Below, piece after piece: positions 8,298 to 44,331 of a stretch of 64,000 nucleotides of DNA. The position numbers and the translations under genes are program-made. The notes under the pieces are model-generated. The model had not been told where the DNA came from, searched no databases, and saw only the letters and a program-made list of their open reading frames with translations. The number at the start of each line of letters is the position of its first letter. The first letter of the stretch is position 1. The stretch lies in the NCBI RefSeq assembly GCF_024223415.1, contig NZ_CP100500.1. One strand, written 5' to 3'. The DNA comes from Escherichia coli (lineage in GTDB: Bacteria > Pseudomonadota > Gammaproteobacteria > Enterobacterales > Enterobacteriaceae).

Positions 8298-8947
8298 TGT
8301 TGGATCTGTTTGCCGATGCTGAACCGTGGCAAGAGCCACTGGCGGCTGGTGCGGTGATTTTACGGCGTTTTGCTTTTAACGCTGCAGAGCAACTAATCCG
8401 CGATATTAATGACGTTGCCAGCCAGTCGCCGTTTCGCCAGATGGTCACCCCCGGGGGATATACCATGTCGGTGGCGATGACCAACTGTGGGCATCTGGGC
8501 TGGACGACCCATCGGCAAGGTTATCTCTATTCGCCCATTGATCCGCAAACAAATAAACCGTGGCCCGCCATGCCGCAGAGTTTTCATAATTTATGTCAAC
8601 GTGCGGCTACGGCGGCGGGCTATCCAGATTTCCAGCCAGATGTTTGTCTTATCAACCGCTACGCTCCTGGCGCGAAACTGTCGCTGCATCAGGATAAAGA
8701 CGAACCGGATCTGCGCGCGCCAATTGTTTCTGTTTCTCTGGGCTTACCCGCGATTTTTCAATTTGGTGGCCTGAAACGTAATGATCCGCTCAAACGTTTG
8801 TTGTTGGAACATGGCGATGTGGTGGTATGGGGCGGTGAATCGCGGCTGTTTTATCACGGTATTCAACCGTTGAAAGCGGGGTTTCATCCACTCACCACCG
8901 ACTGCCGCTACAACCTGACATTCCGTCAGGCAGGTAAAAAAGAATAA
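8297..8947 (+). CDS. alkB: Alpha-ketoglutarate-dependent dioxygenase AlkB
   Basis: 216-aa ORF overlapping the ada stop (ATG/TAA overlap); HxD...H motif (LHQDKDE). Confidence 0.9.
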   Translation: MLDLFADAEPWQEPLAAGAVILRRFAFNAAEQLIRDINDVASQSPFRQMVTPGGYTMSVAMTNCGHLGWTTHRQGYLYSPIDPQTNKPWPAMPQSFHNLCQRAATAAGYPDFQPDVCLINRYAPGAKLSLHQDKDEPDLRAPIVSVSLGLPAIFQFGGLKRNDPLKRLLLEHGDVVVWGGESRLFYHGIQPLKAGFHPLTTDCRYNLTFRQAGKKE

Positions 8948-9022
8948 AAATAAGAATTATTATTGCTGTGCGCGCGAAGATGTTTAAACTGCGGGCTGTA
9001 ATTCATTGTCCGGGTTTTCTGC

Positions 9023-10666
9023 ATGGAACTTCTTGTACTTGTCTGGCGGCAGTATCGCTGGCCATTTATCAGTGTGATGGCGCTAAGCCTCGCCAGTGCG
9101 GCTTTAGGCATTGGCTTAATTGCTTTTATCAATCAGCGCCTTATCGAAACGGCGGATACCAGTCTGCTGGTGTTGCCGGAGTTTCTGGGATTATTGCTGC
9201 TGTTGATGGCAGTCACTCTCGGATCGCAACTGGCGCTCACCACTTTGGGGCATCACTTCGTTTACCGACTGCGTAGTGAATTTATCAAGCGGATTCTGGA
9301 TACCCACGTCGAGCGCATTGAACAACTCGGTAGCGCCTCGTTGCTGGCGGGATTAACCAGCGATGTGCGCAATATCACCATTGCTTTTGTGCGTCTGCCG
9401 GAACTGGTGCAGGGGATCATTCTCACTATCGGTTCCGCGGCGTATCTGTGGATGCTGTCGGGCAAAATGTTGCTGGTAACGGCTATCTGGATGGCAGTCA
9501 CCATCTGGGGCGGTTTTGTGCTGGTGGCGCGGGTGTACAAACATATGGCGACCCTGCGTGAAACCGAAGACAAGCTGTACACGGATTTTCAAACTGTACT
9601 TGAAGGGCGCAAAGAGCTGACTCTGAACCGGGAACGCGCCGAGTATGTGTTTAACAACCTCTACATTCCTGATGCGCAAGAGTATCGCCATCATATTATT
9701 CGCGCAGACACCTTCCATCTTAGTGCCGTGAACTGGTCAAACATCATGATGCTGGGCGCTATCGGCCTGGTGTTCTGGATGGCGAACAGTCTCGGTTGGG
9801 CTGATACCAACGTTGCCGCGACCTATTCGTTGACGCTTTTATTCCTGCGTACGCCGCTGCTTTCGGCGGTTGGCGCATTGCCGACGCTGCTGACGGCGCA
9901 GGTGGCGTTTAACAAGCTGAACAAATTCGCGCTCGCGCCTTTCAAAGCAGAATTTCCGTGCCCGCAGGCGTTTCCAAACTGGCAAACGCTGGAGCTGCGT
10001 AATGTGACGTTTGCTTATCAGGATAACGCGTTTTCCGTTGGTCCGATTAATCTCACCATCAAACGTGGCGAGCTGCTGTTTCTGATTGGCGGCAACGGTA
10101 GCGGAAAATCGACGCTGGCGATGTTGTTGACGGGCTTGTATCAGCCACAAAACGGCGAAATCTTGCTGGATGGCAAACCTGTCAGCGGCGAACAACCGGA
10201 AGATTATCGCAAACTGTTTTCGGCAGTGTTTACCGATGTCTGGCTGTTTGATCAACTGCTGGGGCCGGAGGGTAAACCCGCTAACCCGCAACTGGTTGAG
10301 AAGTGGCTGGCGCAGCTGAAAATGGCTCATAAGCTTGAGTTAAGCAACGGGCGTATTGTTAACCTGAAGTTATCAAAAGGGCAGAAAAAACGCGTGGCGC
10401 TGTTGCTGGCGCTGGCAGAAGAACGCGATATTATCCTGCTGGATGAATGGGCGGCGGATCAGGATCCACACTTCCGTCGTGAGTTTTATCAGGTGTTGCT
10501 GCCGCTGATGCAGGAGATGGGTAAAACTATTTTCGCTATCAGTCATGATGATCATTACTTTATCCACGCCGACCGCCTGCTGGAAATGCGCAACGGGCAA
10601 CTTAGCGAGCTGACGGGCGAAGAGCGCGATGCTGCTTCGCGTGATGCCGTTGCCCGGACGGCATAA
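9023..10666 (+). CDS. yojI: ABC transporter permease/ATPase YojI
   Basis: 547-aa ORF; N-terminal TM domain, C-terminal Walker A (GGNGSGKST) and ABC signature. Confidence 0.85.
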
Positions 10667-31196: not shown

Positions 31197-31257
31197 TAGT
31201 TTAATTGAGTGTGTAACCACATGATTTTAAATAATATGCTTGATTCAACTTTTAAAT

Positions 31258-31284
31258 CGTATAACCAAACGTATAACTAAAATC
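31258..31284. promoter_or_regulatory. Putative integrase arm-type repeats (left island end)
   Basis: cgtataaccaaacgtataactaaaatc; same motif recurs at 42233-42290 next to int. Confidence 0.4.
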
Positions 31285-31447
31285 ATTTGCTGAAAAAGTG
31301 TACAATTTAAAGGCGAGTTTTCCCAGAGGTTTATTAAACTACGAAAATTTCGTAGTTTGTGAATATATTCCGGCCTGCTGGTTAACAGTCCTCAGATGTG
31401 AGGGATGTAGCCAGCGCAATTTTGCGCTTTGCTTTAATCTCAGTCAG

Positions 31448-31729
31448 TTATCGCCGTAACCGCTCCGGCTTCTTCCAGTGGTACGTAATTTTTTCTTTCT
31501 CCCGATACAGTTCAACGCGGCGATTGTAGGCCAGCATTTCCAGAACGCGGATCCGTATGTCGCGCATATCCACGCCGTTAAGCTCAATACCGTCACGGCG
31601 CATCACCTCAGCAACCACACGCGCATAATTTTCGGCGGTCACGCTGTCCGGCTGCGTGGCCTGTTCGTCAGCCTGCTGGCTGATTCCGGCAACGCGACGG
31701 ATTAATCGCAGTAGTTCGGCTTCTGTCAT
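31448..31729 (-). CDS. Hypothetical protein, cos-adjacent
   Basis: 93-aa ORF, plausible composition; no family recognised. Confidence 0.45.
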   Translation of the reverse strand: MTEAELLRLIRRVAGISQQADEQATQPDSVTAENYARVVAEVMRRDGIELNGVDMRDIRIRVLEMLAYNRRVELYREKEKITYHWKKPERLRR

Positions 31730-31761
31730 TGTGCCCCCATCGTTCTGATAGTCTGGTGTCG

Positions 31762-31836
31762 TCGGGTCCTTCCTGGAATTATGGCCCGTTACGGGGCGTC
31801 GACCTCGCGGTTTTTCGCTATTTATGAGATTTTTTG
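31762..31836 (+). other. Lambda-like cos site, copy 1 (cosQ-cosN-cosB start, + orientation)
   Basis: cgggtccttcctgg...cccgttacg|GGGCGTCGACCT|cgcggtttttcgctatttatgag resembles lambda ACGGGTCCTTTCCGG...GGTTACG|GGGCGGCGACCT|CGCGGGTTTTCGCTATTTATGAAAA (lambda sequence from memory). Confidence 0.6.
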
Positions 31837-32285
31837 AGGGGGTGGTTGTTGTTTAATTGTTTGGTATATCTAATTGATAAGTAAGGTAAAAATAAAATAA
31901 ATACAACAACCTTACGGTGTATTTTGATGTCATTAATGTGAAAAAATTCAATGATATCAAATGGTTTTGTAAAAACATATGGTTGTTGTATCGCGTATTT
32001 GATGGCGTAACAGAAAGTGATTTTTAACTTTACCGCTCTGTAACTACGGATTATTCCATGCTGGCACGGAGAACGGCTACGGCATGACGCCACCCAGCCT
32101 ATACAGAACAGTAAAGCCGATAAATTGTTAATCACGCGCAGCAATGCGTGTGATTTTTGCACACTTCCGGTTAACGGGTACGATGTCCGGTTTGTTTGTA
32201 CATTTTTTGCACATGTCCGGTTCGCAGAAAGCATGTTTTTATATTTTTCATATAGTTAACTTGCAGAGAAACCGGACATGGATCC

Positions 32286-32360
32286 CGAAAAATTTTCATA
32301 AATAGTGAAAACGCGCGAGGTCGACGCCCCGTAACGGGTCCACATGCCGGAAAGGACCCG
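32286..32360 (-). other. Lambda-like cos site, copy 2 (inverted; reads cosQ-cosN-cosB on the minus strand)
   Basis: Minus strand reads cgggtcctttccggcatgtggacccgttacg|GGGCGTCGACCT|cgcgcgttttcactatttatgaaaattttt; closer to lambda than copy 1. Confidence 0.65.
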
Positions 32361-32384
32361 CAAAAAAAGCCGGATTTCTCCGGC
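32361..32384 (-). terminator. Terminator after the capsid-module operon
   Basis: Minus strand gccggagaaatccggc followed by a T-run. Confidence 0.5.
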
Positions 32385-32390
32385 CTTGTC

Positions 32391-32804
32391 TCAGATGGTT
32401 TTCAGTATGCGATCGATGTTGCCGTCATCGACCGGGTTTCTGCCATCGTATGCCATGCCAGCTGATACGGCTTTCGGGCTGTGCATGTCCATAAAGTTTT
32501 CAAAGGCTGAAGTAAGCTGTGGTGCAACCTTCGGGCGTTCCTGCTCTATGGTCATGCTAAGGATGCTTTTAGCCGTACCAACATCGATACAAGGCACGTT
32601 AGCCATTGCACGTAACAGCGGCTGGTAGTCGTCAGATTCATGAAGCGCCATAATCGCATCAGCGCGCTGCTTGTCCTGTTCTTCCAGTTTGTTTAGTCGG
32701 TGTATGGCCTCGTAGGTTGATAAACCTCTGTCAGCCATTGCCCGCGCTTCGGCTTTAAATTTACTCGCCAGCGGTAGCGTCATGATACTTTCATTCGTTG
32801 CCAT
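32391..32804 (-). CDS. Hypothetical protein, last gene of the capsid-module operon
   Basis: 137-aa ORF immediately downstream of the gpD-like gene; no family recognised. Confidence 0.55.
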   Translation of the reverse strand: MATNESIMTLPLASKFKAEARAMADRGLSTYEAIHRLNKLEEQDKQRADAIMALHESDDYQPLLRAMANVPCIDVGTAKSILSMTIEQERPKVAPQLTSAFENFMDMHSPKAVSAGMAYDGRNPVDDGNIDRILKTI

Positions 32805-32816
32805 CGTTCCCCCTGC

Positions 32817-33152
32817 TTATCGGGCCAGCGGCTGAACGGATACGCCGGAACCCGCAAAGGCGGCGCATTTTTTCGCATCGGTGTCGACGCTGTCAGGCCA
32901 GTTAACGGCGGCAATATTGAATATCCCCGTTTTGTAACACTGTGCTGATTTCTGCTTTGACGTGTCCACGGGGTGCGAAGTCAGATAAACAGCTTTGCCA
33001 GATTCCTGACCATCCCACGCCTTAAACTCGCCATTGTCTGCCAGCATCAGCGGGGTAAATTCCTGAATAACGCCAGCATCAGCGGCAAAATGTACCAGCG
33101 TCGTGGATACCTGCTGGCTGCCTGCAAATAACTCAATATATGGAGCGTCCAT
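32817..33152 (-). CDS. Head decoration protein, lambda gpD-like
   Basis: 111 aa; conserved blocks shared with lambda gpD as recalled (TPLMLxD...AWDG...YKxGxF...WP...KKxAFAG). Confidence 0.65.
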   Translation of the reverse strand: MDAPYIELFAGSQQVSTTLVHFAADAGVIQEFTPLMLADNGEFKAWDGQESGKAVYLTSHPVDTSKQKSAQCYKTGIFNIAAVNWPDSVDTDAKKCAAFAGSGVSVQPLAR

Positions 33153-33163
33153 AGAATCCCCCG

Positions 33164-34219
33164 TTAAGCAATTTTGACGGTAACAAATTTGCGAATATCT
33201 GCCGGTACCGGCTGCGGTGCGCTGTGCGTCTGCACGTACTCAATCGCCGGATCGCCGTCCTCAATCCAGTTTTTCGGGTAGTACATGTTTTGCGTTGCGC
33301 CCGTTCTTACCGCTTCCTGATCCATAATCGCACCATATGCCACAAGCCCTTTATTGTTGGTGTTACCCAGGACAAGCAAATCAGGCTCAAGGAAATATTT
33401 TTCGGTGCCGTCGCTGTCAGTGTATTTGCCGGAATAGACGATAAGGGCCAGATCACCAAGATAGCCTTTAAAGCTCACCACTTCGCCCAGGTTTTTACAG
33501 GCCAGCTCGGCGGCGGATTCTGAGCCACGGTAAAGATCGTACAGTTCACGGAATTTTTTAAAGCTGCGTAATGTGCGCCATGCCTCACCGCCCATAATCA
33601 TGACGTTGGCGGGGCAACCTGCCTGATCAGCATAAAGCTCGATGTCATAGATTGGGTCGTGCATGTCTTTATCCTGCTGGGACCATTTTTTACCACTGGC
33701 CTGCTGTATGATGCAGTTTTCCGGTATTTTCCAGTCGATTTCATAGCGTTCTATGCCTTCGCCCTCAATGATGTTTTTTCCGGTCGTTACCGCATTCACC
33801 GCCAGCCATTCCACGCGCGCCTTAATGGCGTTTATCTGGCGGCGCATGTTGCCAGTAATCAGGCGCATACGGCGGTAAGTTGGATCGTTAAGCTGTGCCG
33901 GATCTTCTCCAGCCATGCGCATGATGGTCTTTGTTGGATCGATTTCGTGCTTTGGCTTCATGTAGCCTGGTTTAATCGTGCTGGTTTCGTACCCTTTATC
34001 GCGCTGGACCTGACTACCCACCATAGGAGAACAGAACGCTGACATCGTAACCTCTTCAATGTCCAGGGTGTCCAGCATGATGTTTTGGGTGTTGAAGGTC
34101 GCCACGTTCGGGAAAAACAGCGTGGTAAACAGCGGACTAAATTTAAATTCCGAAATATCCCCGCGATTCAGGTACGCGAAAAGCTGGTTAGTTGTAAGTG
34201 CCGTTGCTTTGCCTGTCAT
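33164..34219 (-). CDS. Major capsid protein, lambda gpE-like
   Basis: 351 aa; blocks shared with lambda gpE as recalled (FKFxPLF, PGYMKPKHE, DPxYRRMR, YSGxY, YPKNW, GDPA). Confidence 0.8.
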   Translation of the reverse strand: MTGKATALTTNQLFAYLNRGDISEFKFSPLFTTLFFPNVATFNTQNIMLDTLDIEEVTMSAFCSPMVGSQVQRDKGYETSTIKPGYMKPKHEIDPTKTIMRMAGEDPAQLNDPTYRRMRLITGNMRRQINAIKARVEWLAVNAVTTGKNIIEGEGIERYEIDWKIPENCIIQQASGKKWSQQDKDMHDPIYDIELYADQAGCPANVMIMGGEAWRTLRSFKKFRELYDLYRGSESAAELACKNLGEVVSFKGYLGDLALIVYSGKYTDSDGTEKYFLEPDLLVLGNTNNKGLVAYGAIMDQEAVRTGATQNMYYPKNWIEDGDPAIEYVQTHSAPQPVPADIRKFVTVKIA

Positions 34220-34425
34220 TATTCACCTCCGTGAACCTGATTGATACCCAGCGCCGCACGTAAATAGGTACGCACCTGCCAGCCTGTTGACGGCTCAACC
34301 ATCGCCAGCGGATCAAGTCCTGCCGCAATGCCTGCTTTTACATTCTGCTGGTGGCGTTCCTTGAGCGCCTCCACGATGTCGGGGCTTATGTAGACCGTCA
34401 CCCCGCCTTTTTTCTCTTCTGCCAT
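34219..34425 (-). CDS. Hypothetical small protein, first gene of the capsid-module operon
   Basis: 68-aa ORF whose stop overlaps the gpE-like start. Confidence 0.45.
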   Translation of the reverse strand: MAEEKKGGVTVYISPDIVEALKERHQQNVKAGIAAGLDPLAMVEPSTGWQVRTYLRAALGINQVHGGE

Positions 34426-34592
34426 AGTCAGAAATTCCTCTTTGACTTAAAAAATCATAACTGGATGTTCATCCAGTCCTGATTATAATCATGATTGCAT
34501 TTTGCGCAACAATATTGAGTTACGTTGCAAATTATGAAATGATTATCCCGATCATGTGTGCCAGTGCACCATAAAAAACCTCGTATACAAAA

Positions 34593-34660
34593 GCCCGATA
34601 AGCCCCCTGTGACCTTATCGGGCTTTTTTTAGGCGTAAAAAAGCCGGATTGCTCCGGCTT
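34593..34660. terminator. Pair of terminator hairpins between the finO-like gene and the capsid operon
   Basis: gcccgataagccccctgtgaccttatcgggc + T-run, and agccggattgctccggct preceded by an A-run. Confidence 0.5.
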
Positions 34661-34683
34661 CGTCTCTTCATGTGGTCAGGGTT

Positions 34684-35268
34684 TTATGCTTTCCGTACGC
34701 CCGAGGAACTGGCATTTTTCAGAATAATATTATGCCCTGCTGGTGGCTTACCGTTATGCTTATTTTCTGCCTTCATGTTTCTGCGCTCCTGCTGTTTTTT
34801 CTTCATCTCATCCAGTCGCTTCCCCGCGTTCAACTGGTGCTCCTGTGTCACCTCCCCGCACGGATGGCCTTTCAGGTCGTAACGCACGCCACCAGCCATC
34901 AGGGAACGGTAATATCGCACTGAACTGACATAATACGCCAGCGTTGCGCGAAGCGCTCCCTGACCTAATGAAATACCTCTCGCAGTAATATCCTCCATCA
35001 GGTCATCAAATATGCCAACCTTAAGCGGTCTGGGCGATTCCTGGCTGAAAAGTTCAGGCCAGAGCGCGGCAAGGCGTTCAACGCGTCTGATATTTTTTTT
35101 CCGGCTCTTTTCTGATTTGCGTTTTGCTGCCGTCTTCTGTTGTGTTTTCTGCTCGCGGCTCTGCTTTTGCGCTGGTGTGGTTTTATCCGGCTGTTCAGCC
35201 TCCTGCGTCTTTTTCTGCGGTGTGCCGTATATGCCTTTTGGTTTTCGGTTAATGGTCAGCTTTGTCAT
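34684..35268 (-). CDS. FinO/ProQ-domain RNA-binding protein with a basic N-terminal extension
   Basis: Likely start MTKLTINRKPK (SD ggggagaa upstream); C-terminal region shares blocks with the ProQ N-terminal FinO domain as recalled (LWPELF, RPLKVGIFDDL, DLxGxPCGE). Confidence 0.65.
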   Translation of the reverse strand: MTKLTINRKPKGIYGTPQKKTQEAEQPDKTTPAQKQSREQKTQQKTAAKRKSEKSRKKNIRRVERLAALWPELFSQESPRPLKVGIFDDLMEDITARGISLGQGALRATLAYYVSSVRYYRSLMAGGVRYDLKGHPCGEVTQEHQLNAGKRLDEMKKKQQERRNMKAENKHNGKPPAGHNIILKNASSSGVRKA

Positions 35269-35347
35269 GTTCTCCCCCTTTGTGCTGTTCCACCAGCGGC
35301 ATCTGCTACCCCGTGTCGCTCCCGCTGGTGTCGTGTTTCCCCGCCTG

Positions 35348-35668
35348 TTAATAACCGTCATCATTTACGTTATCAGGGTAATCACGCCATATTTCATCAG
35401 TAAGCGACGGTAGCCCCATCTGTTGTATTGTCCTGTCTGCGGCCCTTCTGACTGCGTGAACATCATAACGGTTTTCAGGTATCGGGCGCTTTGCCTTCCT
35501 GATACATTCCCTTGCTCTCATTGCCGCAAGTTCTCTGTGCCTGTCTTCCTGAAGAGTAATCATCACATCCTGCCACCTTCTGGCAGCCCGTCGCCACAGT
35601 CCCCTGCTCTCGAGTTCTTCTGCTGTCGCGTCGCTTATTGTCCGGTTCTTCGGTGTGCTGTTGTTCAT
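35348..35668 (-). CDS. PerC-family transcriptional activator-like protein
   Basis: 106 aa with AEELESRGLWRRAARRWQDVM, resembling the conserved PerC/Pch motif as recalled. Confidence 0.5.
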   Translation of the reverse strand: MNNSTPKNRTISDATAEELESRGLWRRAARRWQDVMITLQEDRHRELAAMRARECIRKAKRPIPENRYDVHAVRRAADRTIQQMGLPSLTDEIWRDYPDNVNDDGY

Positions 35669-35685
35669 GTTGCTCCCCGCCTGAT

Positions 35686-36096
35686 TCAGAAGGGTATATC
35701 ATCTCCGTAGGGGTCATCGCCTCCCGCTGGTGGCTCATTCCCCTGTGTGCCTGTGGTTTTGCGTCTGTTCCCGCCATGACGTGCCGCACGCGCACTGATT
35801 ACGCTGTCTGCGATAACCTGCCAGCCCTGCCGCGTTTCCCCGTTCTGTCCGGTCCACTGGCTCACCTGCATGTTACCCGCCACGCTCAGGAGTTCACCTT
35901 TGCGGTGCTTTGCCAGTGCTTCGGCCTGTCTGCCAAACGCCAGCACAGATAACCACATCGTCGCCGTTCCGTCATCTGCCTGGCTGCACGGAAGGGGGAC
36001 CGCCATACTCGCCATCGCCATTTGTGTCCCCTTGCTGGTGGTCTTTAACTGCGGGTCAGCCACCAGCCGCCCGTAAGCCGCTATCTGTGCTGTCAT
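35686..36096 (-). CDS. ssb: Single-stranded DNA-binding protein (phage-type SSB)
   Basis: 136 aa; OB-fold pattern (GRLVADPQLK...WLSVLAFGRQAE...) and acidic C-terminal tail GDDIPF typical of SSB. Confidence 0.7.
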   Translation of the reverse strand: MTAQIAAYGRLVADPQLKTTSKGTQMAMASMAVPLPCSQADDGTATMWLSVLAFGRQAEALAKHRKGELLSVAGNMQVSQWTGQNGETRQGWQVIADSVISARAARHGGNRRKTTGTQGNEPPAGGDDPYGDDIPF

Positions 36097-36344
36097 GCTG
36101 TATGCTCTCCGGTTTTAACGTTGATGGTTGTCACCTGTTCCGCTCCGGCAATCTCCCGTTCTGTCAGCGTGGCAAAATTTGCCGCTACCGTTGTCATGAA
36201 TGCGCTTATCAGTTCGGGATGTGCTTTCGCGTATCCTTCTCCCGCGTGGCGGTCTATCGTTCTGATTGCCACCTTTAAGGCGTGCTCTGTCATGTCTAAC
36301 GCTTTATATTTTGGCGCTGTCTTATCTCTGGTTTTTCTGTTCAT
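36093..36344 (-). CDS. Hypothetical protein
   Basis: ORF 36093-36374; likely start MNRKTRDK, just downstream of the iterons. Confidence 0.45.
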   Translation of the reverse strand: MNRKTRDKTAPKYKALDMTEHALKVAIRTIDRHAGEGYAKAHPELISAFMTTVAANFATLTEREIAGAEQVTTINVKTGEHTA

Positions 36345-36560
36345 TCCCCACCACTCCCCACTTTTGCTCCCCACTTTTTAAATTCCCCACTTGCTCCCCA
36401 CCTCGTTTTTTGAGTGAATCTAATGCTTTGTTTTTCATTGCGTTTTTTACTCCCCACTTTTTTGGATGTATACAGGTGGGAAAGTGGGGAATTATGTTTC
36501 AATTTTGTTAAATTCCCCACTCTCCCCACTTTTACTACCCACTTTTTACAGTGGGTAAAC
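36344..36560. repeat. Iteron cluster, putative island replication origin
   Basis: At least nine direct and inverted copies of (a/c)TCCCCAC(TTTT), e.g. actccccactttt, gctccccactttt, attccccacttg, plus inverted gtgggaaagtgggga, next to the primase/helicase gene. Confidence 0.6.
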
Positions 36561-37961
36561 ATCATCCCCATCGACACAAATCACGCCGTCTTTTTCCAGC
36601 TTGGACAGCCAGCGCCGGAAGTGCTTCATCTCATACCCCAGCTTTTTCATATCGTCGCGGAGAAGGGCGATAGTGCATGGCTCTTTGTGTGCCGTCCGCG
36701 TTCTGATGCACTGCCATAGCGCGGTATGGTTTTCCGTCTTGTTGCCTGCCTCCTCGATGCGCTCCAGTTCAACGGGAGAGCGCGGCTTATCAACCACCAC
36801 CAGCGACGTGATTAACTCCCCGTCAGCGTCGGTAAAAAGCTCCACCACGCGTAAATCGTAGGCGGCCTCTTTCAGTTCCTCCGCGTCCTTCATTTTGGTG
36901 CAGGATATAACCAGGGCTTTACTGTCTGCACCTTCTCGGCGAATACGGTATTCAGCGTCCAGAGATGCACGAAATGCACTGGAACCACGCGCCCCCTTTG
37001 TTTCATCCTTGCCGGAATGGTGGACCACCAGCACCGTGGCCCCTGTGCGTCGTTTCAGGTCGTCACATCCACGGATAAACGCCCCCATATCCCGCGCGTC
37101 ATTTTCATCATTACCGCCAAAGCAACGCGCCAGCGTATCCAGAATAATCATGCGTACCGGTTTACCCGTTTCCCGTTCAACCTGGCGGGAAGCGATAACC
37201 ATTTCATCAACATCAAGCGGGGCTGCCGGAAAAATCGGGCGGTTTACCAGGTACAGATTTTTCACCCGTTCATCATTAACGATTTCCCATGCCTTGATAC
37301 GACGGGGGACACCAATGCCACCTTCACCGACAACATACATCACCGAACCATGCGCCACCCTGCGGCCTCCCCAGTGGCGCCCCGTGGCAACATGACACGC
37401 CCAGGAACACGCAAGGAATGATTTATAGGAACCGCTCGCACCGTATGTGCTGCACAATGAATTAGCCGGAATCACGCCCTTAACGACATAATCAAGCTGT
37501 GTGTCGTATCCTGCAGATCCAATGCTCATGGGTAGCGTGGTTTTTCGCTGGCTGTATTGCTCATCAGTAAGTATTTCCCCGCGCTCTGCCTGTTCGCGGA
37601 TCCGTTGCAGGTAGTCGCGCCATTCCTCCCGCTTCTGGCTGTGCATTCCCTCGGGGTAATAACTCGCATCCCGTATACCTGCCGCCGCCAGTTTTTGCCC
37701 GATGGCATTAATATTTGATGGCTTGATGTGGCCTGCCTTGTACAGCCGGACACAATAGCGACCATCGTCGATAATTTTCAGGTCTGCCAGTTCGTCAAGC
37801 TGACTGTCTCCCAGCCATACTGGCGGGACGTTATCGCCAGCAAGTCGCCCGTCCTGTTCCTGCCATTGTTTTGCGTGCGCCCAGGCATCACTACCTGCAA
37901 AAATAATGACTTCGGTCATTTTGTTGTGTGGCTGTTTTTTTAAGTTCGGTGCCAGTTTCAT
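36546..37961 (-). CDS. Replication protein: putative primase/helicase (RecA-like NTPase, AAA_25/RepA-like)
   Basis: 471 aa; P-loop-like GASGSYKSF and Walker B-like MIILDTLARCF; position typical of satellite pri-rep genes. Confidence 0.55.
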   Translation of the reverse strand: MKLAPNLKKQPHNKMTEVIIFAGSDAWAHAKQWQEQDGRLAGDNVPPVWLGDSQLDELADLKIIDDGRYCVRLYKAGHIKPSNINAIGQKLAAAGIRDASYYPEGMHSQKREEWRDYLQRIREQAERGEILTDEQYSQRKTTLPMSIGSAGYDTQLDYVVKGVIPANSLCSTYGASGSYKSFLACSWACHVATGRHWGGRRVAHGSVMYVVGEGGIGVPRRIKAWEIVNDERVKNLYLVNRPIFPAAPLDVDEMVIASRQVERETGKPVRMIILDTLARCFGGNDENDARDMGAFIRGCDDLKRRTGATVLVVHHSGKDETKGARGSSAFRASLDAEYRIRREGADSKALVISCTKMKDAEELKEAAYDLRVVELFTDADGELITSLVVVDKPRSPVELERIEEAGNKTENHTALWQCIRTRTAHKEPCTIALLRDDMKKLGYEMKHFRRWLSKLEKDGVICVDGDDVYPL

Positions 37962-38257
37962 TTTTTATCCCTGAATCCGTTAATCATGGTTTTCATCTTC
38001 TGAATATTGGCGCGTGCTTTCTCCCTGCTGGTTGGTTTACTGCGGGGCGCTGCCTGTACCAGAGAAAAATCACGCCGGAACTGATAAACAGGCATCACGC
38101 AGTCATATTCGTAGCCATCACGGCGGTAAGTGATGCGCCGTTCTGCCACGCCTTTAATCGTTACCGTACCGCCGTAGTTATCACGGAAAATATCGCCGGG
38201 ACGGATTTCAGGCCGAGCGGGGCCGCTGGCAGTAAAGCCAGAATTTTTCTTTTTCAT
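37958..38257 (-). CDS. Hypothetical protein
   Basis: 99-aa ORF overlapping the primase start (ATGA). Confidence 0.45.
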   Translation of the reverse strand: MKKKNSGFTASGPARPEIRPGDIFRDNYGGTVTIKGVAERRITYRRDGYEYDCVMPVYQFRRDFSLVQAAPRSKPTSREKARANIQKMKTMINGFRDKK

Positions 38258-38261
38258 GGTT

Positions 38262-38462
38262 TTATTTTCCTGTCAGTGATTCCGGCTTTATTCCGGCGCG
38301 AATACAGGCTTCAGAAAAAAAAGCCAGAGAACCAATAACCTCATTATTTCTAAGGCGGCATTGCGATTTCACTTTCCCTTTATCCAGGAATATCAAAACG
38401 CGCCCCGTATAATCAGATGGCACATTAAGCACTACAGGTAAGTGCGCTTCATGATTATTCAT
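38262..38462 (-). CDS. Hypothetical small protein
   Basis: ORF 38262-38531; likely start MNNHEAH (66 aa). Confidence 0.35.
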   Translation of the reverse strand: MNNHEAHLPVVLNVPSDYTGRVLIFLDKGKVKSQCRLRNNEVIGSLAFFSEACIRAGIKPESLTGK

Positions 38463-38742
38463 GGCTAACCACCTCCTGGAATTTTCTTCTGTAACGCGCC
38501 TCTGCCACATATTCAGCATAGTCCGACGCAATATTGAGAATATCGCTACCCGTTCCTGAATGTTCGGCGGTTTCCAGTAAAAAACATGCAGCTTTTACCA
38601 TGTCAGCAACACATAACAGCGCAATATCTGTATCTTCCGGTGTGCCATCAAATTCCTGTTTCAGGGCATTAAAACGATCATCACGCATAACCCCATATTC
38701 ACAATCAGCAATCAGGATGGCTTTGGCCTCATTCAGTGCCAT
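38455..38742 (-). CDS. Hypothetical protein (C-terminal, protein-like part of a 595-aa stop-free frame; true start uncertain, could extend to about 38898)
   Basis: Last ~95 codons of frame 38455-40242 are acidic and helix-like; upstream part looks non-protein-like. Confidence 0.4.
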   Translation of the reverse strand: MALNEAKAILIADCEYGVMRDDRFNALKQEFDGTPEDTDIALLCVADMVKAACFLLETAEHSGTGSDILNIASDYAEYVAEARYRRKFQEVVSHE

Positions 38743-38896
38743 ATCAGCGGTAAGCTGTGCGTAGGCCAGCAAATGCGGGATTATTGCCCCTGTATATTCC
38801 GGCTCTCTGATAATGTGGTCGGATGTGTTGATTAAATAGTTTGTGCGAAAAATGCACCTGTAACCATCAGTTAACAACGGATATACAGGGGGGACC

Positions 38897-39067
38897 ATGA
38901 ATGATAAGGGGGTGCCGTTTGATGTGCTCCTGCAAAAGCTGAATGCTGCACGCGCCGCAAGGGAACGTGAGCGCATGAGTAATAACCCTGTCCCTCCTGA
39001 ATTACCTCGCCCTGAACATTTTCCGCTTGAGGATTTCATCAGGGGACGAATCCGAACAAAACGATAA
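38897..39067 (+). CDS. Small ORF a (56 aa); paralogous to ORF c
   Basis: MNDKGVPFDVLLQKLNAARAARERERMSNNPVPPELPRPEHFPLEDFIRGRIRTKR; G-rich SD-like sequence upstream; shares the FPLE-FI / RERER motif with ORF c. Confidence 0.3.
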   Translation: MNDKGVPFDVLLQKLNAARAARERERMSNNPVPPELPRPEHFPLEDFIRGRIRTKR

Positions 39068-39310
39068 CCGCCGCCGTGATATGAGGCATCACGACGCAAT
39101 GCATTACAGGTGAGCACCATGAACAAATCCATATTATCCCCCACAGTTCTGGACGTAAACACAAAGCAGCGACAGATATTATTACGCGCCGTCATTAAAG
39201 CCAGACACGAGAAATTAAACCAAATCTTAAAATAAGATACGCCGCTACCGCTGTAAGTCTTCATCAGAAACAGAAAACGCCAGAGCAGATGAGCACGGAG
39301 GTAACTCTTT

Positions 39311-39505
39311 ATGAAAATAAACGAATCAGGGGAAATTACCGAAGCCAGCGTGGTACGCCAGCGGAGGCGGGAACGACGGGTACGGCCCCCCGCGCCATCC
39401 GATAATTTCCCGCTTGAGCGCTTCATCAGTGAACGGCCCCGCATACGCTGGAACGGCACAACCCCATACCCCGAGGAGAGACAGACAAAAAACAAACAGC
39501 GATGA
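39311..39505 (+). CDS. Small ORF c (64 aa); paralogous to ORF a
   Basis: SD ggagg 8 nt upstream; contains RRRERRVRPPAPSDNFPLERFISERP. Confidence 0.3.
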   Translation: MKINESGEITEASVVRQRRRERRVRPPAPSDNFPLERFISERPRIRWNGTTPYPEERQTKNKQR

Positions 39506-39681
39506 TGAAATCTGGAGGCCAATACCATCACGCAGCCATCAGGAGATTGCTGACGCGCTTCCTGTTCGCTGGTGGCCTCGATGGTAATCACGCGCGGTTG
39601 TGCAGTGCTCAGGGCGATAAAACGCCACACAAAGGCCGTTTGTGTGTGCGCAAGGCGTGGGGTATGCTGTGTTCCAGCCAT
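39460..39681 (-). CDS. Icd-like (host cell division inhibitor-like) protein; 3' end undefined because the frame has no stop until 38455
   Basis: Strong SD (aggag, 9-nt spacer) before ATG at 39681; MAGTQHTPRLAHTQTAFVWRFIALS...TSEQEARQQ... resembles Icd-like proteins of satellite elements as recalled. Confidence 0.35.
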
Positions 39682-39808
39682 AATCGTTACTCCTGTTAAC
39701 GGTTTGGTTAGACGCCCTGCATGTGTGCCACCACTGCGGGGCGTTGTTTTTGTGGTGTCATTGGTATACATTGTCACCTTAATGGCATTATCACTACAGA
39801 GGTTTATC

Positions 39809-39985
39809 ATGTCAACCAATGACAACAAAAAAGAAAGATTTTCCGTACAACTACGCCTAGACGCAGATTTGTTCGAGCGTTTAAGTATTGCCATGAAAGA
39901 AGATGGCGACGATAACCGATCTGGATGGATCAAAAGGCTTTTACGACGCGAATTAGATAAACGCGGCATTGAGTCAAAAAGCTGA
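39809..39985 (+). CDS. Ribbon-helix-helix (Arc/Mnt-like) DNA-binding protein
   Basis: 58 aa; ERFSVQLRLDADLFERLSIAMKEDGDDNRSGWIKRLLRRE parallels the Arc repressor pattern (beta-strand then two helices) as recalled. Confidence 0.5.
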   Translation: MSTNDNKKERFSVQLRLDADLFERLSIAMKEDGDDNRSGWIKRLLRRELDKRGIESKS

Positions 39986-40078
39986 CAGCCAACCAGCAAG
40001 CCAGCACACTGATCACATTGCCCACCAGCCGCAAATGTGGCATTGTTGGTGATGCTTTTGTTTTCCCTTGTTCCCACT

Positions 40079-40108
40079 GGCGACCCTTTTGCGGTCGCCT
40101 TTGTTTTG
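40079..40108 (+). terminator. Rho-independent terminator after the RHH gene
   Basis: ggcgacccttttgcggtcgcc + tttgtttt. Confidence 0.55.
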
Positions 40109-40202
40109 CCTGTTATCCGGCAATTGTGGCGCTTCGCCACACGGTTTATATAACCCCACTGCTCAGATTCATTTTTTGCGCAGTAGGTTAATTGTTCGCA
40201 AG

Positions 40203-40231
40203 GGCGGCTCCTTATCGGGGCCGCTTTTTTC
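40203..40231 (+). terminator. Second plus-strand terminator before alpA
   Basis: gcggctccttatcggggccgc + tttttt. Confidence 0.5.
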
Positions 40232-40256
40232 GTGTTTGTCATATCTGTGATACCCG

Positions 40257-40463
40257 TTAAGCAGCCGTTCCGCGTGCTTCCTGTTCGCGTTCTTTCTGCC
40301 AGGCCAACACATCATCCTCATACCATCCGCGACGGCGTAAACCAACGCGAAAACCCTGCGGAAATTCTCCGGCGTTGATCATGCTTTGCAGCGTGCTGTC
40401 TGCCTTGATGTGGATAATTTTTTTTACTTCCTGGCGAAAGATAATTTTTCTGATTGCTTCCAT
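40257..40463 (-). CDS. alpA: AlpA-family regulator / excisionase-like protein
   Basis: 68 aa; HTH region LQSMINAGEFPQGFRVGLRRRGWYEDDVLAW typical of AlpA-family proteins. Confidence 0.7.
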   Translation of the reverse strand: MEAIRKIIFRQEVKKIIHIKADSTLQSMINAGEFPQGFRVGLRRRGWYEDDVLAWQKEREQEARGTAA

Positions 40464-40593
40464 CGTGATTTACCTTGTGAATCCGGTGTATTCCGGTGAC
40501 AAATACGGTAAATCATCGGATATGGGTAAAAACAGTTCCCACCGTTTTTAAACGGTATACACCGTTTTTTATATTGATGATTTGAAATGGAAT

Positions 40594-40622
40594 TATAAAA
40601 AAAGCGGCATTTCTGCCGCTTC
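40594..40622 (-). terminator. Terminator between the int-proximal ORF and alpA
   Basis: Minus strand agcggcagaaatgccgct followed by a T-run. Confidence 0.45.
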
Positions 40623-40630
40623 CAGGATTG

Positions 40631-40882
40631 TTACCGCCATTTTTTGGGCCTGCCTCCGATCTTCATAGATGCCGGACGTACGACCTTATCAATACTTACC
40701 GCCAGATTTCTGGAAGCGCCACGGGATACCAGAAAATCTACTACCTGTTTTTTTGATGGGGCCGTCGTCCTGTCCTCCGGATCGTAGGTTGACCAAAATT
40801 CATGCTGAACCATCAGGGCCAGTTGCAGCCCGTCGCAATTGCATCTGATATTTTTTTGCATCTTAACGGTTTCATGTTTCAC
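40631..40882 (-). CDS. Hypothetical protein between int and alpA
   Basis: 83-aa ORF with basic C-terminus (GGRPKKWR). Confidence 0.4.
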   Translation of the reverse strand: MKHETVKMQKNIRCNCDGLQLALMVQHEFWSTYDPEDRTTAPSKKQVVDFLVSRGASRNLAVSIDKVVRPASMKIGGRPKKWR

Positions 40883-40959
40883 GGCCTTGTCGTTAAATTT
40901 GATGCAATTATACGACGGTTTTACATGGTTTTCGTAGTTTTTACTGGTTTTCTGTACAG

Positions 40960-42219
40960 CTACACGGCTCGGATACCCCTTTTACCACTGGCGAGGGTTA
41001 CGCCCGTCGCCGCAGCCTCGACAAATTCGCCCCACCAGCGCATCAGCACGATGCGTTTTTCTATGTAGTTGCTCCGGTTGTATGCCCGTCTAACTTCGTT
41101 GGTGTCGACGTGGGCAAGTGCCGCCTCTATTACGTCCGGCTCGAATCCTTCCTCGTTCGCTGCTGTGCTGAATATGGCGCGTAATCCATGAGACACCAGC
41201 ACGCCAGCGAATCCCATACGCCGCAATGCTGCGTTAGCTGTCTGGCTGTTCATCGGCTGCTGTGGGTCTTTCAGACTTGGGAAAACGTAATTGCGGTGGT
41301 GGCTGATTGGTTTCATGGCCTCCAGCACCGCCATAGCCTGACCGGAAAGCGGGATAACGTGATCCCTGCGCATCTTCATGCGTCCGGCAGGTATCGTCCA
41401 TTGCTTCGCGTCCAGGTTGATTTCATCCCACCGCGTTGATGACGCTTCGGCGGGACGGGTTACGGTCAGTAACTGCCATTCAATCAGTAATCTGGTCTGC
41501 CGTTCTGTTGCCGATACTGATAAAGCCTGCATAAGCTCGGGCAGCTGTTCGGGGCGGATTGTTGGCATATGTTTTTTTACAGGTGAGGGAAACGCCTTAC
41601 GCACATTCATAGCCGGATTGGCATCAATCAGCCCACTGTTGGCGGCGTAATCCATTACCTCATTAACGCGCTGTAAAACCCGCTTGAGTGTTTCCAGGTT
41701 GCCGCGCTCCTTGATGGGGGTAAGCACTTCAACGAACCTTCGGGCGGTGAGGGTATCTATTGGCGTGTTGCCGATGAACGGGAATACATATTTATCCAGC
41801 GAACGCCAGATGTCTTTAATCGTGTTGGGGGCCAGATTCTGGCTGATTTTCACCTGGTACCATGCCGCCGCCACATTTTCGAACGTGTTCCCTTGTCTTC
41901 GGGCCTCTGTCTCTCTTTTTTGCCTCTCGTGGTCCTGCGGGTCAGTTCCGGCACTGATTAACGTCCTGTACTCGCTACGGCGTTTTCTGGCATCAGCCAG
42001 GGAAACATCTTCAAGCGATCCAAAACTCAGCAATATTCTTTTTTTGTCCGATGGTCGGTAGTAGGAAAATCTCCAGAGTTTTGATCCAGACGGTTTGACC
42101 AGGAGAAAAAGCCCTCCGCCGTCCTGCAGGGTGTACTCCTTTTGCGCTGGTCTGGCTGCTTTGATCTGCACTGTGGTTAATGGGTGTGTTTTTCTCGCCA
42201 TATGTCTATGATTCCACAC
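40960..42219 (-). CDS. int: Tyrosine recombinase / integrase (P4-type)
   Basis: 419 aa adjacent to tRNA-Pro; N-terminal arm-binding region (LFLLVKPSGSKLWRFSYY) and C-terminal catalytic domain (HGLRAIFST...LAHV...RAYNRSNY). Confidence 0.9.
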   Translation of the reverse strand: MWNHRHMARKTHPLTTVQIKAARPAQKEYTLQDGGGLFLLVKPSGSKLWRFSYYRPSDKKRILLSFGSLEDVSLADARKRRSEYRTLISAGTDPQDHERQKRETEARRQGNTFENVAAAWYQVKISQNLAPNTIKDIWRSLDKYVFPFIGNTPIDTLTARRFVEVLTPIKERGNLETLKRVLQRVNEVMDYAANSGLIDANPAMNVRKAFPSPVKKHMPTIRPEQLPELMQALSVSATERQTRLLIEWQLLTVTRPAEASSTRWDEINLDAKQWTIPAGRMKMRRDHVIPLSGQAMAVLEAMKPISHHRNYVFPSLKDPQQPMNSQTANAALRRMGFAGVLVSHGLRAIFSTAANEEGFEPDVIEAALAHVDTNEVRRAYNRSNYIEKRIVLMRWWGEFVEAAATGVTLASGKRGIRAV

Positions 42220-42232
42220 GAAAAAACAGGGT

Positions 42233-42290
42233 TTTAGTTATACGGCTTTAGTTATACGTCAGCCCGTATAACTAAACGTATAACTAAAAA
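42233..42290. promoter_or_regulatory. Cluster of putative integrase arm-type sites
   Basis: ttagttatacg x2 (inverted) and cgtataactaaacgtataactaaaa between int and the tRNA. Confidence 0.4.
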
Positions 42291-42419
42291 ATCCGGCTGA
42301 TAGCTTATAAATCCGGTGATGTTCGGTGACTAAAAAACATAAAAAAACCCGCCAATCAAGTGATTAGCGGGTTATCCCTGTCTTATCCGGTGCTTTCCGG
42401 TGATATCCGGTGGGCGATT

Positions 42420-42496
42420 TGGTCGGCACGAGAGGATTTGAACCTCCGACCCCCGACACCCCATGACGGTGCGCTACCAGGCTGCGCTACGTGCCG
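42420..42496 (-). tRNA. proL: tRNA-Pro (proL-type)
   Basis: Reverse complement reads CGGCACGTAGCGCAGCCTGGTAGCGCACCGTCATGGGGTGTCGGGGGTCGGAGGTTCAAATCCTCTCGTGCCGACCA (77 nt, cloverleaf-compatible). Confidence 0.9.
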
Positions 42497-42570
42497 ACTC
42501 GTGGCTGTTAATACTACCGTTTTCCACACCGATTGCAAGTAAGATATTTCGCTAACTGATTTATAATTAA

Positions 42571-44331
42571 TCAGTTAGCGATAAAACGCTTCTCGTCTGT
42601 CAGTACTTGCAATAACAAACTTAACTGTGGTTTTTCATCTTTCACTCTTTCACCACGTAAGTTGTAAGTGCGGTATTTACCGTTATTGTTCAGCACCAGC
42701 GTCTTTTTCGGGGTGGTAATTGCCAGCGTATCGTTATCCGCTGCGGTAACCCAGTAATGACGGCGTTGAGGGTTGAACAAATCCTGACCTTGCGAATATT
42801 CGCTGGCAGGTGTGCTGACATGTAGCAGGCGTTGCATCAGCGTCGTCATCAGATCGGTATGATCAGTCAGCGCATTAATACGCTGCGCCGGCGTGCCTGG
42901 CCAGTGAATCACTAATGGCACCTGCAGGTGACCGTGGGACCAGTCAAAGGTTTCTTCCTCTTCGCTCAGTGGAATACCCCGACCGGCAGTGATAATCACC
43001 ACCGTATTGCCCAGTTTGCCAGAATCACGCAGTGCATTGAGCACGCGGTTGATCTGGTCATCGACATTGCCTGCCGCCCGGCTATATTTCCGTGCAAATG
43101 CCTGCTGATTGCTGTCGTCAATGTTGGTGCCATTGAAAGAGACCCACGAGAACCAGCGGTTATCTTCTTGTGCGTAGCGTCCCAGCCAGTTGATCCACTG
43201 CGTGGCGGTCTGCTCGTCGGATTGGGTGCGTACGCTCGGCATCGAGAAATCTGACAACAATGCCTGACGATAAAGCGGACTGGTAAAGCCATCTGACGAG
43301 AATAGGCCCAACTGATAGCCTTGCTGGTTGAGAGCGGTAATTAACGCCGCAGGCGTACGGGTCGACAGAATGCCGTCCATATAGCTCGGTGAGATGCCAT
43401 AGAACAGGCCAAAGATGCCGTTGTCTGTAGTGTTGCCGGAGCTCATATGGCGCGTGAACGAAATATTTTGCTCAGCAAAACCTGCCAGCGCAGGCATCTG
43501 CTTCTCGAAGCGTGAGTAGTTCAGGCCATCGACAGTAATCAACAAGACATTCTGCCCGGTGCCCATATCGCGATAGCGCAGTTCGCTTAACGGATACTGA
43601 ACGGAAACGGCGTCTGGATTACCTTGCTCAATAAGACGGCGTTGATACTCCTGTGCATCAAGCAGGCCATGCTTTTCAAGAAAACGTCGCGCCGTCATCG
43701 GGTACGAAAGCGGCAGGTTAGCGCGCTGCATGGTGATCGGGCGATAGAAGTTGGCATCGGCCCAGATATACACCACATGCGAGGCGATAAAGGCGATAAA
43801 TAAGAATGCGGCCAGCGGACGCGCGAAGCGCCGACGACGCGTCAGGCTGCGCAGCTTTTGCCAGCTCCACGTCGCAAACACCAGTTCAAGCAATAAAATA
43901 ACCGGCACGCTGATGAACATCAGCTGCCAGTCGCGCGCCATCTCATTTTCGTCTGGGTTGATAACCAGTTGCCAGACGATGGGATTAAGATGGAGATGGA
44001 AACGAGTAAAGACTTCGCTATCGATCAGTAATAGCGTCATTCCCGCCGTTGCCAGAATGACGGACAAAAACCTCATCAGCCTCTGGGAGCCGACGATAAA
44101 GGTCAGCGGGAAGAGGATCAGCAAGTAGGTGGCGAACACCAGGAAGCTGAAATGGCCGATAATGCTTACGTAGGAATAAATGCGACCAGCAAGCGTGGTC
44201 GGCCAGTCGGCGATAAACAGGTAACGGCTGCCAATGACGAGCGAAAGCAGAATATTGAACAGTGCAAACCAGTGCCCCCAACTGACCATCTGGGAGACTT
44301 TTTCACGGTAGCGCTGACGATGAGTTACCAT
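42571..44331 (-). CDS. yejM: Inner membrane protein YejM (LapC), sulfatase-like
   Basis: 586 aa, N-terminal TM helices and periplasmic sulfatase-like domain. Confidence 0.9.
   Translation of the reverse strand: MVTHRQRYREKVSQMVSWGHWFALFNILLSLVIGSRYLFIADWPTTLAGRIYSYVSIIGHFSFLVFATYLLILFPLTFIVGSQRLMRFLSVILATAGMTLLLIDSEVFTRFHLHLNPIVWQLVINPDENEMARDWQLMFISVPVILLLELVFATWSWQKLRSLTRRRRFARPLAAFLFIAFIASHVVYIWADANFYRPITMQRANLPLSYPMTARRFLEKHGLLDAQEYQRRLIEQGNPDAVSVQYPLSELRYRDMGTGQNVLLITVDGLNYSRFEKQMPALAGFAEQNISFTRHMSSGNTTDNGIFGLFYGISPSYMDGILSTRTPAALITALNQQGYQLGLFSSDGFTSPLYRQALLSDFSMPSVRTQSDEQTATQWINWLGRYAQEDNRWFSWVSFNGTNIDDSNQQAFARKYSRAAGNVDDQINRVLNALRDSGKLGNTVVIITAGRGIPLSEEEETFDWSHGHLQVPLVIHWPGTPAQRINALTDHTDLMTTLMQRLLHVSTPASEYSQGQDLFNPQRRHYWVTAADNDTLAITTPKKTLVLNNNGKYRTYNLRGERVKDEKPQLSLLLQVLTDEKRFIAN

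Follow-up and report, generated by a model that had tools for sequence, protein, structure and literature searches.

Gene content of the alpA to replication interval

The DNA stretch analysed here (the window, 64,000 nucleotides of the Escherichia coli contig NZ_CP100500.1, assembly GCF_024223415.1) is chromosomal, and carries a satellite island of about 11 kb, of the P4 or phage-inducible chromosomal island (PICI) type, at tRNA-Pro(GGG) (42420-42496) adjoining yejM. We deal with the interval between the island gene alpA (40257-40463, minus strand), a helix-turn-helix gene of the AlpA/Vis family, and the replication genes. There one minus-strand open reading frame (ORF) of 595 codons (38455-40242) lies opposite several small plus-strand ORFs, and this region is 100% identical to that of strains Ch1 and GF4; strain 135 also has the island in identical form. 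The backbone genes of the island are all on the minus strand, and the leftward operon has the order int, alpA, the interval, DUF4222, RepA helicase. We conclude that the 595-codon ORF is not one protein. Its frame is kept stop-free in almost all relatives though it crosses opposite-strand genes and terminators, and RNA genes in some of the relatives, and it is probably a translated read-through track, the counterpart in this island of eta/kil of P4.

The minus-strand frame, which the preliminary description gave as open for 1788 nt (595 codons), is 618 codons long from stop to stop (38455-40311) with no internal stop. Over this span the only stop in the long frame is its own terminal one, compared to 33 and 40 in the other minus frames and 27, 18 and 28 in the plus frames. 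At the stop rate of the sister frames, the chance of the 389 non-genic codons being stop-free is about 1e-8; the openness first noted is confirmed and goes far beyond chance. The frame becomes open at 40311, within alpA, and its first ATG is at 40242, with the alpA stop 14 nt upstream. At the other end, the stop of the long ORF overlaps the next ATG (38462) by 8 nt, and further along the chain the DUF4222 and helicase genes overlap by 4 nt at the helicase start.

In the identical sequence of E. coli Ch1, the Prokaryotic Genome Annotation Pipeline (PGAP) gives the full ORF a single product, 'host cell division inhibitor Icd-like protein' (WP_244567439.1). Yet homologues were found for two stretches only, residues 188-246 (Icd-like) and residues 474-594 (phrog_2512), in PHROGs and NCBIfam. 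Residues 1-187 and 247-448 have no match in PHROGs, NCBIfam or Pfam. A Pfam scan of the long ORF gave no family even at E<=10 (no ANT, Bro-N, KilA-N or Phage_ASH), and no Ant, KilA or Bro domain was seen in it with any of the three collections. Codon-usage scores are close to zero, the N-terminal 187 codons having -0.09 and the middle -0.01, where real genes score 0.1-0.3. Identity to relatives in the minus frame is 54-77% at the amino-acid level, below the 73-94% at the DNA level, which argues against selection on the protein.

The Icd-like or Kil-like domain (39505-39681, minus strand) is nested in frame within the long ORF. The start proposed for it earlier, with a strong Shine-Dalgarno sequence, stands: AGGAG (39694-39690) lies 8 nt upstream of ATG 39681, and residues 204-245 (42 of the 595) match NF033153 phage_ICD_like with E 3.8e-14 and 52.5 bits, the cut-off being 25. 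The matches to phrog_6196 and phrog_1743 cover residues 188-246. The normal stop of the domain is missing and the frame runs 349 codons beyond it; in most relatives there are 56-58 codons from the start of the Icd-like match to the stop.

The C-terminal part also proved protein-like, over a longer stretch than the ~95 codons first claimed, as residues 474-594 match phrog_2512 with E 4.7e-49. It corresponds to a phrog_2512-type gene of 147 codons from ATG 38898 (38455-38898, minus strand; domain at 38458-38823). The related loci L004, L005 and L008 have here two overlapping genes (79 aa and 77 aa) in different frames, which in the window are fused in one frame. The fused tail is like PHROG 2512 (154 aa), and split and fused forms both exist in nature. 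The first ~40 codons of this gene (38783-38853, minus strand) have 77% DNA identity to positions 2884-2954 of a further related locus, L006 (E. coli Z1323MEC0001), directly upstream of isrK/c4-a1b1 elements, which is the place of PLE in P4. There may thus be a second promoter, like PLE, at 38783-38853, though no hexamer pair there passed the promoter scan.

Elements within the upstream 187 codons

The first 187 codons of the long ORF lie upstream of a strong internal promoter-like site. On the plus strand opposite them are a ribbon-helix-helix gene, two terminators and what may be a small RNA. The predicted sigma-70 site (TTGACA-17-GATAAT, 39815-39787, minus strand, 11/12 match) falls within the long ORF, about 100 nt upstream of the icd-like ATG, and we propose it as the equivalent of P4 PLE. 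A 24-nt inverted repeat (39748-39771 and 39809-39832, 83% complementary) flanks it and is a putative operator.

The 58-aa ribbon-helix-helix-like gene (39809-39985, plus strand) codes for a putative repressor. Its matches are weak, both to the YlcI/YnfO family NF041551 (17.2 bits, E 0.0039, under the 30-bit cut-off) and to the NikR N-terminal ribbon-helix-helix model (E 0.0012). In the relatives the same position, diverging from the icd promoter, is held by a YlcI/YnfO gene (59.7 bits) or by one of the Arc-like prophage regulators.

The intrinsic terminator T1 (40079-40107, plus strand) is at the end of the plus-strand gene module, and its stem has compensatory changes among relatives, one pair being CG in 12 and GC in 6. 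The second intrinsic terminator T2 (40200-40232, plus strand), a hairpin followed by a T-run, is antisense to codons 4-15 of the long ORF. A candidate plus-strand small RNA of ~72 nt (40161-40232), antisense to the first ~25 codons, would end at T2. The conserved stretch before it has an extended -10, TGATATAAT, in 17 of the 18 variants; the window is mutated at this element, which reads TTATATAAC (40146-40154), and the candidate RNA may therefore be weakly made here. A hairpin at 40125-40141 lies directly upstream.

A family of small proteins on the plus strand

It had been reported that four plus-strand ORFs (38897-39067, 39119-39235, 39311-39505 and 39809-39985) share one frame and have Shine-Dalgarno-like sequences. 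We find the same: all the starts are 2 mod 3, and each is preceded at 3-8 nt by a G-rich Shine-Dalgarno-like sequence. These small ORFs belong to real protein families. The last is the ribbon-helix-helix-like gene described above, and the others are members of a family that we name after its motif, F-x-L-E-x-F. A typical member is an ORF of 52-94 aa that lies antisense to icd and encodes a helix rich in Arg, Lys and Glu and then the sequence F-[AP]-L-[ED]-x-F-[LIV]. The family is always antisense to icd, is present in most of 80 IMG/VR loci, and is annotated by NCBI as 'hypothetical protein'.

In the window the family is represented by p56 (38897-39067, motif HFPLEDFI), whose exact protein is in public gene calls (P0045), by p64 (39311-39505, motif NFPLERFI), a divergent member, and by the pseudogene p41 (39119-39292, plus strand as are the others), of which the ORF 39119-39235 is part and which has two in-frame TAA codons (39233 and 39254). 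Read through its stops, p41 has 44% identity over 55 aa (E 5e-14) to the product of L006 3067-3270. This is the first of four PGAP-called plus-strand genes of 62-82 aa in L006 that end in F-A-L-E/D-x-F-L/V. Among 1.84 billion proteins we found 28 family representatives at 50% identity, all of 41-100 aa and with conserved N- and C-termini. When a hidden Markov model built without the window sequences was run against all six-frame pieces of 6.5 kb of the island, the two best matches were p56, with E 7.5e-4, and p64, with E 0.023, both of them weak. Within the family the pN/pS ratio (nonsynonymous to synonymous polymorphism) comes to 0.35 for the plus frame and to 0.65 for the minus frame. When 100,044 species genomes were scanned for the motif there were 51 matches, about the chance expectation, of which the single enterobacterial one (L105) is unrelated.

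The paralogy claimed for two of the ORFs is weak when they are compared as a pair (BLASTP E 0.074) and becomes convincing only through the wider family. The ~30-nt repeat associated with them is real, being 31 nt at 81% identity (39018-39048 and 39405-39435), and there is a third copy at 39248-39267, degraded because the second p41 stop replaces the Glu of the motif (PL*VFI). Since the repeat is the conserved C-terminal motif of a small-protein family, its suggested role as an RNA target of the P4 or P1 type is unsupported, and Rfam (E<=1) finds no C4, c4-a1b1 or isrK. The other suggestion, of a longer plus-strand gene in decay, also lacks support: the ORFs align each with a whole protein of the family, distinct from the others, 52-94 aa long and with a start and a stop of its own, and only the middle ORF (39119-39235) has decayed, by two in-frame stops.

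At the DNA level, 20 of 21 distinct variants use CTT for the Leu of the motif (39023-39031, 39410-39418 and members from L003-L095) while neighbouring third positions vary, and this conservation of CTTGAG is not required by the minus frame. Several family ORFs are also preceded by a conserved leader of ~50 nt (…GAGGCATCACGACGCAATGCATTACAGG…), found at 39053-39118 in the window and at 3001-3058 and 3548-3588 in L006, so that each repeat unit consists of leader and gene. A hammerhead-like reading of the minus-strand repeat (CUGAUGA...GAAA) was rejected, there being no conserved helix II and no Rfam match.

The middle block and its rarity

The three F-x-L-E-x-F members, one of them the pseudogene, are antisense to the middle of the long ORF, where a block of 606 nt (38899-39504) separates the icd-like gene from the next gene. 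Homology to the common relatives L004, L005 and L008 ends at 38817 and resumes at 39503, which leaves ~685 nt here against ~110 nt there; these relatives have a 68-122-aa Icd-like gene with a normal end that overlaps the next small gene. Among 5426 complete E. coli genomes only 9 have the block, and a handful of contigs of metagenomic or viral origin carry it too; as every copy is at least 99.8% identical there is no informative variation for the ratio of nonsynonymous to synonymous substitution (dN/dS). Plasmid and phage collections hold no copy, and in IMG/VR there are three contigs with it, identical or near-identical. In a collection of 5.8 billion proteins p64 has no word match, and the minus-strand translation matches only the near-identical long ORF. 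The contigs that encode p56 are identical copies, one deletion variant and one low-coverage contig with homopolymer indels. The A>T skew across the middle is +0.2 to +0.38, which is that of plus-strand coding; codon-usage scoring of the middle did not tell the strands apart.

Openness of the frame across related islands

For comparison we surveyed 88 loci, which form 64 clusters at 95% identity and are related by descent and recombination. In 55 of the 64 clusters the open stretch in frame upstream of the Icd-like match is at least 140 codons long (typically 250-420, or about 300), whereas the other two frames are open for only 2-24 codons; the chance of such openness, estimated from the stop rate in the sister frames, is 1e-4 to 1e-12 per locus. 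Where alpA was located, the frame typically opens ~35 nt inside its 3′ end. In 9 of 10 short cases there is another open frame, of 232-401 codons, that ends 4-203 nt before icd. The frame is also open in divergent islands, with 689 codons in L003, 393 in L004, 401 in L005, 623 in L006 and 413 in L008. The sequence of L006 is largely unrelated, and its minus ORF (596 aa, from the alpA end to Icd-like) crosses four plus-strand genes and the isrK, c4-a1b1 and C4 RNA elements detected by Rfam. Indels split the frame in L010 (an IMG/VR copy) and in E. coli B771, but the upstream part of the split frame in B771 runs to within 4-5 nt of the icd ATG. As an open frame recurs even when it is not the frame of icd itself, what is conserved is an unbroken translatable path and not a fusion protein.

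The antisense genes lie in one codon phase relative to the track, third position opposite third position, in 240 of 253 gene-frame records. They include three ribbon-helix-helix types, a SWIM protein, a 158-aa protein and the F-x-L-E-x-F family. For ordinary genes of the window, that antisense phase has 0.037 stops per codon, more than the 0.024 of the codon-aligned phase, and the openness is therefore not the usual shadow-ORF effect. The idea of genuinely overlapping sense and antisense genes, raised in the preliminary description, thus stands in part: the plus-strand ORFs are in real families and the minus frame is stop-free in nearly all related islands, but outside its Icd-like and phrog_2512 parts this frame seems to be selected for openness and not for its amino-acid sequence.

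Comparison with P4, P1/P7 and the Bro zone

In P4 (L015 in our set) the AlpA-family gene vis is at 8764-9030, and an open frame of 217 codons (8168-8821) extends from the vis 3′ end to the kil stop, crossing isrK/seqA, c4-a1b1 and the CI (C4) RNA gene. Kil, a 64-65-aa protein, is the last 64 residues of this frame. By sequence comparison it belongs to the Icd-like family, with 76 bits to NF033153, a match to phrog_1743 as for the window Icd-like domain, and a BLASTP E of 3e-4 to that domain. Translation of eta prevents premature transcription termination in P4, according to the summary in PMC10111431 of Forti et al. 1999 (J Bacteriol 181:5225). The likeness to the window extends to the order of parts (an AlpA-family gene, a long ORF from its end, an internal promoter, an in-frame Icd/Kil gene and the replication genes) and to the crossing of non-protein elements by the long frame. 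The link to P4 and P1 was rightly sensed at the outset, though the precedent of eta/kil for the long frame was missed.

The two differ in extent and in content. The eta gene has ~198 codons, shares its stop with kil and overlaps no genes of the other strand, while the track in the window is of 595 codons, with the ribbon-helix-helix gene, the terminators and a three-gene array opposite to it, and with the icd stop lost so that it runs into the next gene. The CI/C4 RNA and its seqA/isrK targets, central to P4 immunity, are absent from the window by Rfam: a search of positions 35000-43000 at E<=1 gave no C4, c4-a1b1 or isrK, all of which are present in L006 and P4. A C4/CI RNA in the conserved region after alpA was also considered and rejected, there being no Rfam match.

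It may be noted that in L006 a PGAP 'ash family protein' pseudo-CDS (coding sequence; 2592-3143) overlaps the Rfam C4 match (2619-2706, 69 bits), and that eta translation across the CI RNA gene of P4 (L015 8420-8507) gives the same Gly/Pro-rich motif. The 'ash family' annotations may largely be translations of C4/CI RNA genes within eta-type frames.

The immI operon of P1/P7 (c4 antisense RNA, icd, ant) is reportedly under transcriptional control by way of translational repression. It is like the window in having an Icd-family small gene with translation coupled to downstream genes, and in the logic whereby an untranslated leader leads to Rho termination. What the window lacks, by the Rfam, PHROGs, NCBIfam and Pfam searches described above, is a C4 RNA, its a/b target sites and a homologue of the antirepressor (ant).

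The stretch from alpA to the primase/helicase in Gram-negative PICIs has been described as the 'Bro zone', with long, highly mosaic ORFs, some with C4/isrK homologues (Mageeney et al. 2023, PMC10111431), and the same authors regard P4 eta and the PICI genes at this position as Bro-network genes with shuffled segments (PMC10111431). The island in the window has the four-zone order of Gram-negative PICIs (PMC10111431), including a capsid gene of its own. Whereas the Bro zone work treats domain-swapping proteins, our results suggest that a good part of the mosaic is one of opposite-strand genes and of RNA or terminator elements under a frame that is just kept open.

Other features of the island

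The integrase gene is at 40960-42219, and downstream of the interval are a 66-aa gene, DUF4222 (37958-38257) and the RepA-family helicase (36546-37961), all on the minus strand; the genes downstream of icd are of the phrog_2512, phrog_340 and DUF4222 types. Beyond the helicase come genes for SSB, PerC, ProQ/FinO, the major capsid protein and decoration proteins. The stretch at about 31200-36500 (L001 1779-6890) has lambda E-type major capsid, head-decoration, ProQ/FinO-family and PerC-family genes, and with its own capsid and PerC genes the island resembles capsid-bearing PICIs and the PerC-encoding EcCIMP1 (PMC10111431, PMC11773190). The promoter region of alpA has a perfect 18-nt palindrome, AAACGGTATACACCGTTT (40550-40567), then a partial repeat, AAAACGGTGGGAAC; the palindrome is a possible regulator-binding site, and a minus-strand terminator (40623-40600) precedes it upstream of alpA. 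One island copy, L147 (GCA_044694505.1, DBBFWC010000007.1), has a 1.49-kb deletion equivalent to 37171-38659 of the window, by which the C-terminal part of the helicase is joined to the middle of the phrog_2512-type gene; in view of this helicase fusion the copy is probably replication-defective.

Discussion

To explain the 595-codon frame we favour, as a probable and by no means assured account, that it is the counterpart of P4 eta/kil, a translated read-through track. By analogy with P4, transcripts entering from alpA would be translated along the track, and this translation would shield them from Rho and from the convergent plus-strand module so that the replication genes are reached. Transcripts from the internal promoter would be translated only from ATG 39681, and the ribbon-helix-helix protein probably represses this promoter through the flanking inverted repeat. 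In the rare variant seen in the window, the F-x-L-E-x-F array would have recombined in downstream of icd, in frame at both ends, replacing the icd stop and the junction of icd with the next gene. Translation from either ATG would now run to 38455, with coupling to the next gene kept and the chain unbroken to the helicase. Alternatively, the openness of the block may have been inherited from an earlier position in an eta-type track, as in L006.

Several points weigh against this account. There is no clear Shine-Dalgarno sequence at ATG 40242, and to judge from GC skew the minus transcript is without an obvious C-rich tract where Rho could load. As no C4/CI RNA or its targets are found in the window, the specific termination signal that eta overrides in P4 is absent, and polarity would need generic Rho action or convergent transcription. 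With a strong internal promoter at hand, the upstream read-through could be dispensable. The openness of the middle block, if inherited from an earlier eta-type context, would require only in-frame junctions (~1 in 9) and no selection in place. Moreover, the survey statistics are not independent, the loci sharing descent and recombination. A programmed -1 frameshift from alpA into the long frame was considered and rejected, as the alpA 3′ end is without a slippery heptamer.

The long ORF might instead be an accident without function, a recent mosaic that is in frame by chance and was over-called by annotation pipelines, so that only the short Icd-like, phrog_2512 and plus-strand small genes matter. 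In keeping with this, the middle block is rare and nearly clonal, codon-usage scores are neutral, the parts that look untranslated have no homologues, and indels split the frame in L010 and B771. We nevertheless think it unlikely, given the chance of about 1e-8 for the 389 non-genic codons and the openness in 55 of 64 clusters that carry different inserted genes, with 9 of the 10 exceptions keeping a second long frame that abuts icd; even in B771 the upstream frame ends 4-5 nt short of the icd ATG.

We give little credence to a genuine long multi-domain protein, be it a domain-swapping 'Bro-network' protein or an Icd-like fusion. It would agree with the PGAP call for the entire ORF, with the Bro-network treatment of P4 eta and the PICI genes at this position by Mageeney et al. 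(PMC10111431), and with the protein homologues of two segments. But beyond these two small domains there is no Pfam, NCBIfam or PHROG match, and the amino-acid identity is below the DNA identity. Inside the ORF there are also a predicted promoter and, on the other strand, genes of recognised families and two terminators whose changes preserve the structure; the equivalents in L006 and P4 run through RNA genes detected by Rfam, and the upstream track of some relatives is in a frame other than that of icd.

Lastly, that the plus-strand ORFs are not genes but shadows of the minus frame, with the repeat and leader acting as nucleic-acid elements (for protein binding or RNA pairing in an immunity or replication circuit), would suit the near-invariant CTT codon (beyond what the protein needs), the conserved leader before several copies and the negative codon-usage score of p64, and conservation alone cannot separate the two frames as they share third positions, yet it is quite improbable when the starts, stops, termini and 52-94-aa lengths of the family are conserved down to 50% identity, pN/pS is lower in the plus frame, the other third positions of the motif vary freely, Rfam finds none of the three RNA elements in the window and shadow ORFs normally favour another phase.

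The read-through track is a device of a known kind (P4 eta/kil) in a new and more extreme form, and the 'Bro zone' of PICIs was already described. Tentatively, and with a good chance of its being too broad, we extend the idea to a whole class of enterobacterial satellites. In these the interval from alpA to the replication genes would be a single stop-free ribosome track with unconstrained amino acids, the opposite-strand genes being phase-locked to it, which leaves both free to evolve. On this view many RefSeq entries of 150-700 aa named 'Icd-like', 'ash family' or Bro-type would be translated spacers and not proteins, and induction would depend on translation-protected read-through in the face of convergent transcription and of a small RNA, cis-antisense to the 5′ end of the track. 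Neither a general stop-free track with phase-locked antisense genes nor the reinterpretation of the long 'Icd-like', 'ash' and Bro-type annotations seems to have been put forward before.

The read-through account makes sense of the puzzling 595-aa 'Icd-like protein' annotation in RefSeq, which has many similar entries of 150-700 aa, and it ties the regulatory zone of Gram-negative PICI-type islands to the experimentally studied anti-termination device eta/kil of P4. The analysis also defines the small and narrow F-x-L-E-x-F protein family, mostly missed by the pipelines because the long antisense ORF wins. The device tolerates, and probably constrains, antisense overlap on the scale of kilobases with real genes in a fixed codon phase. 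If the track is translated, it would be a clean natural case of an open frame selected without selection on the protein, and it would give a testable switch for satellite induction.

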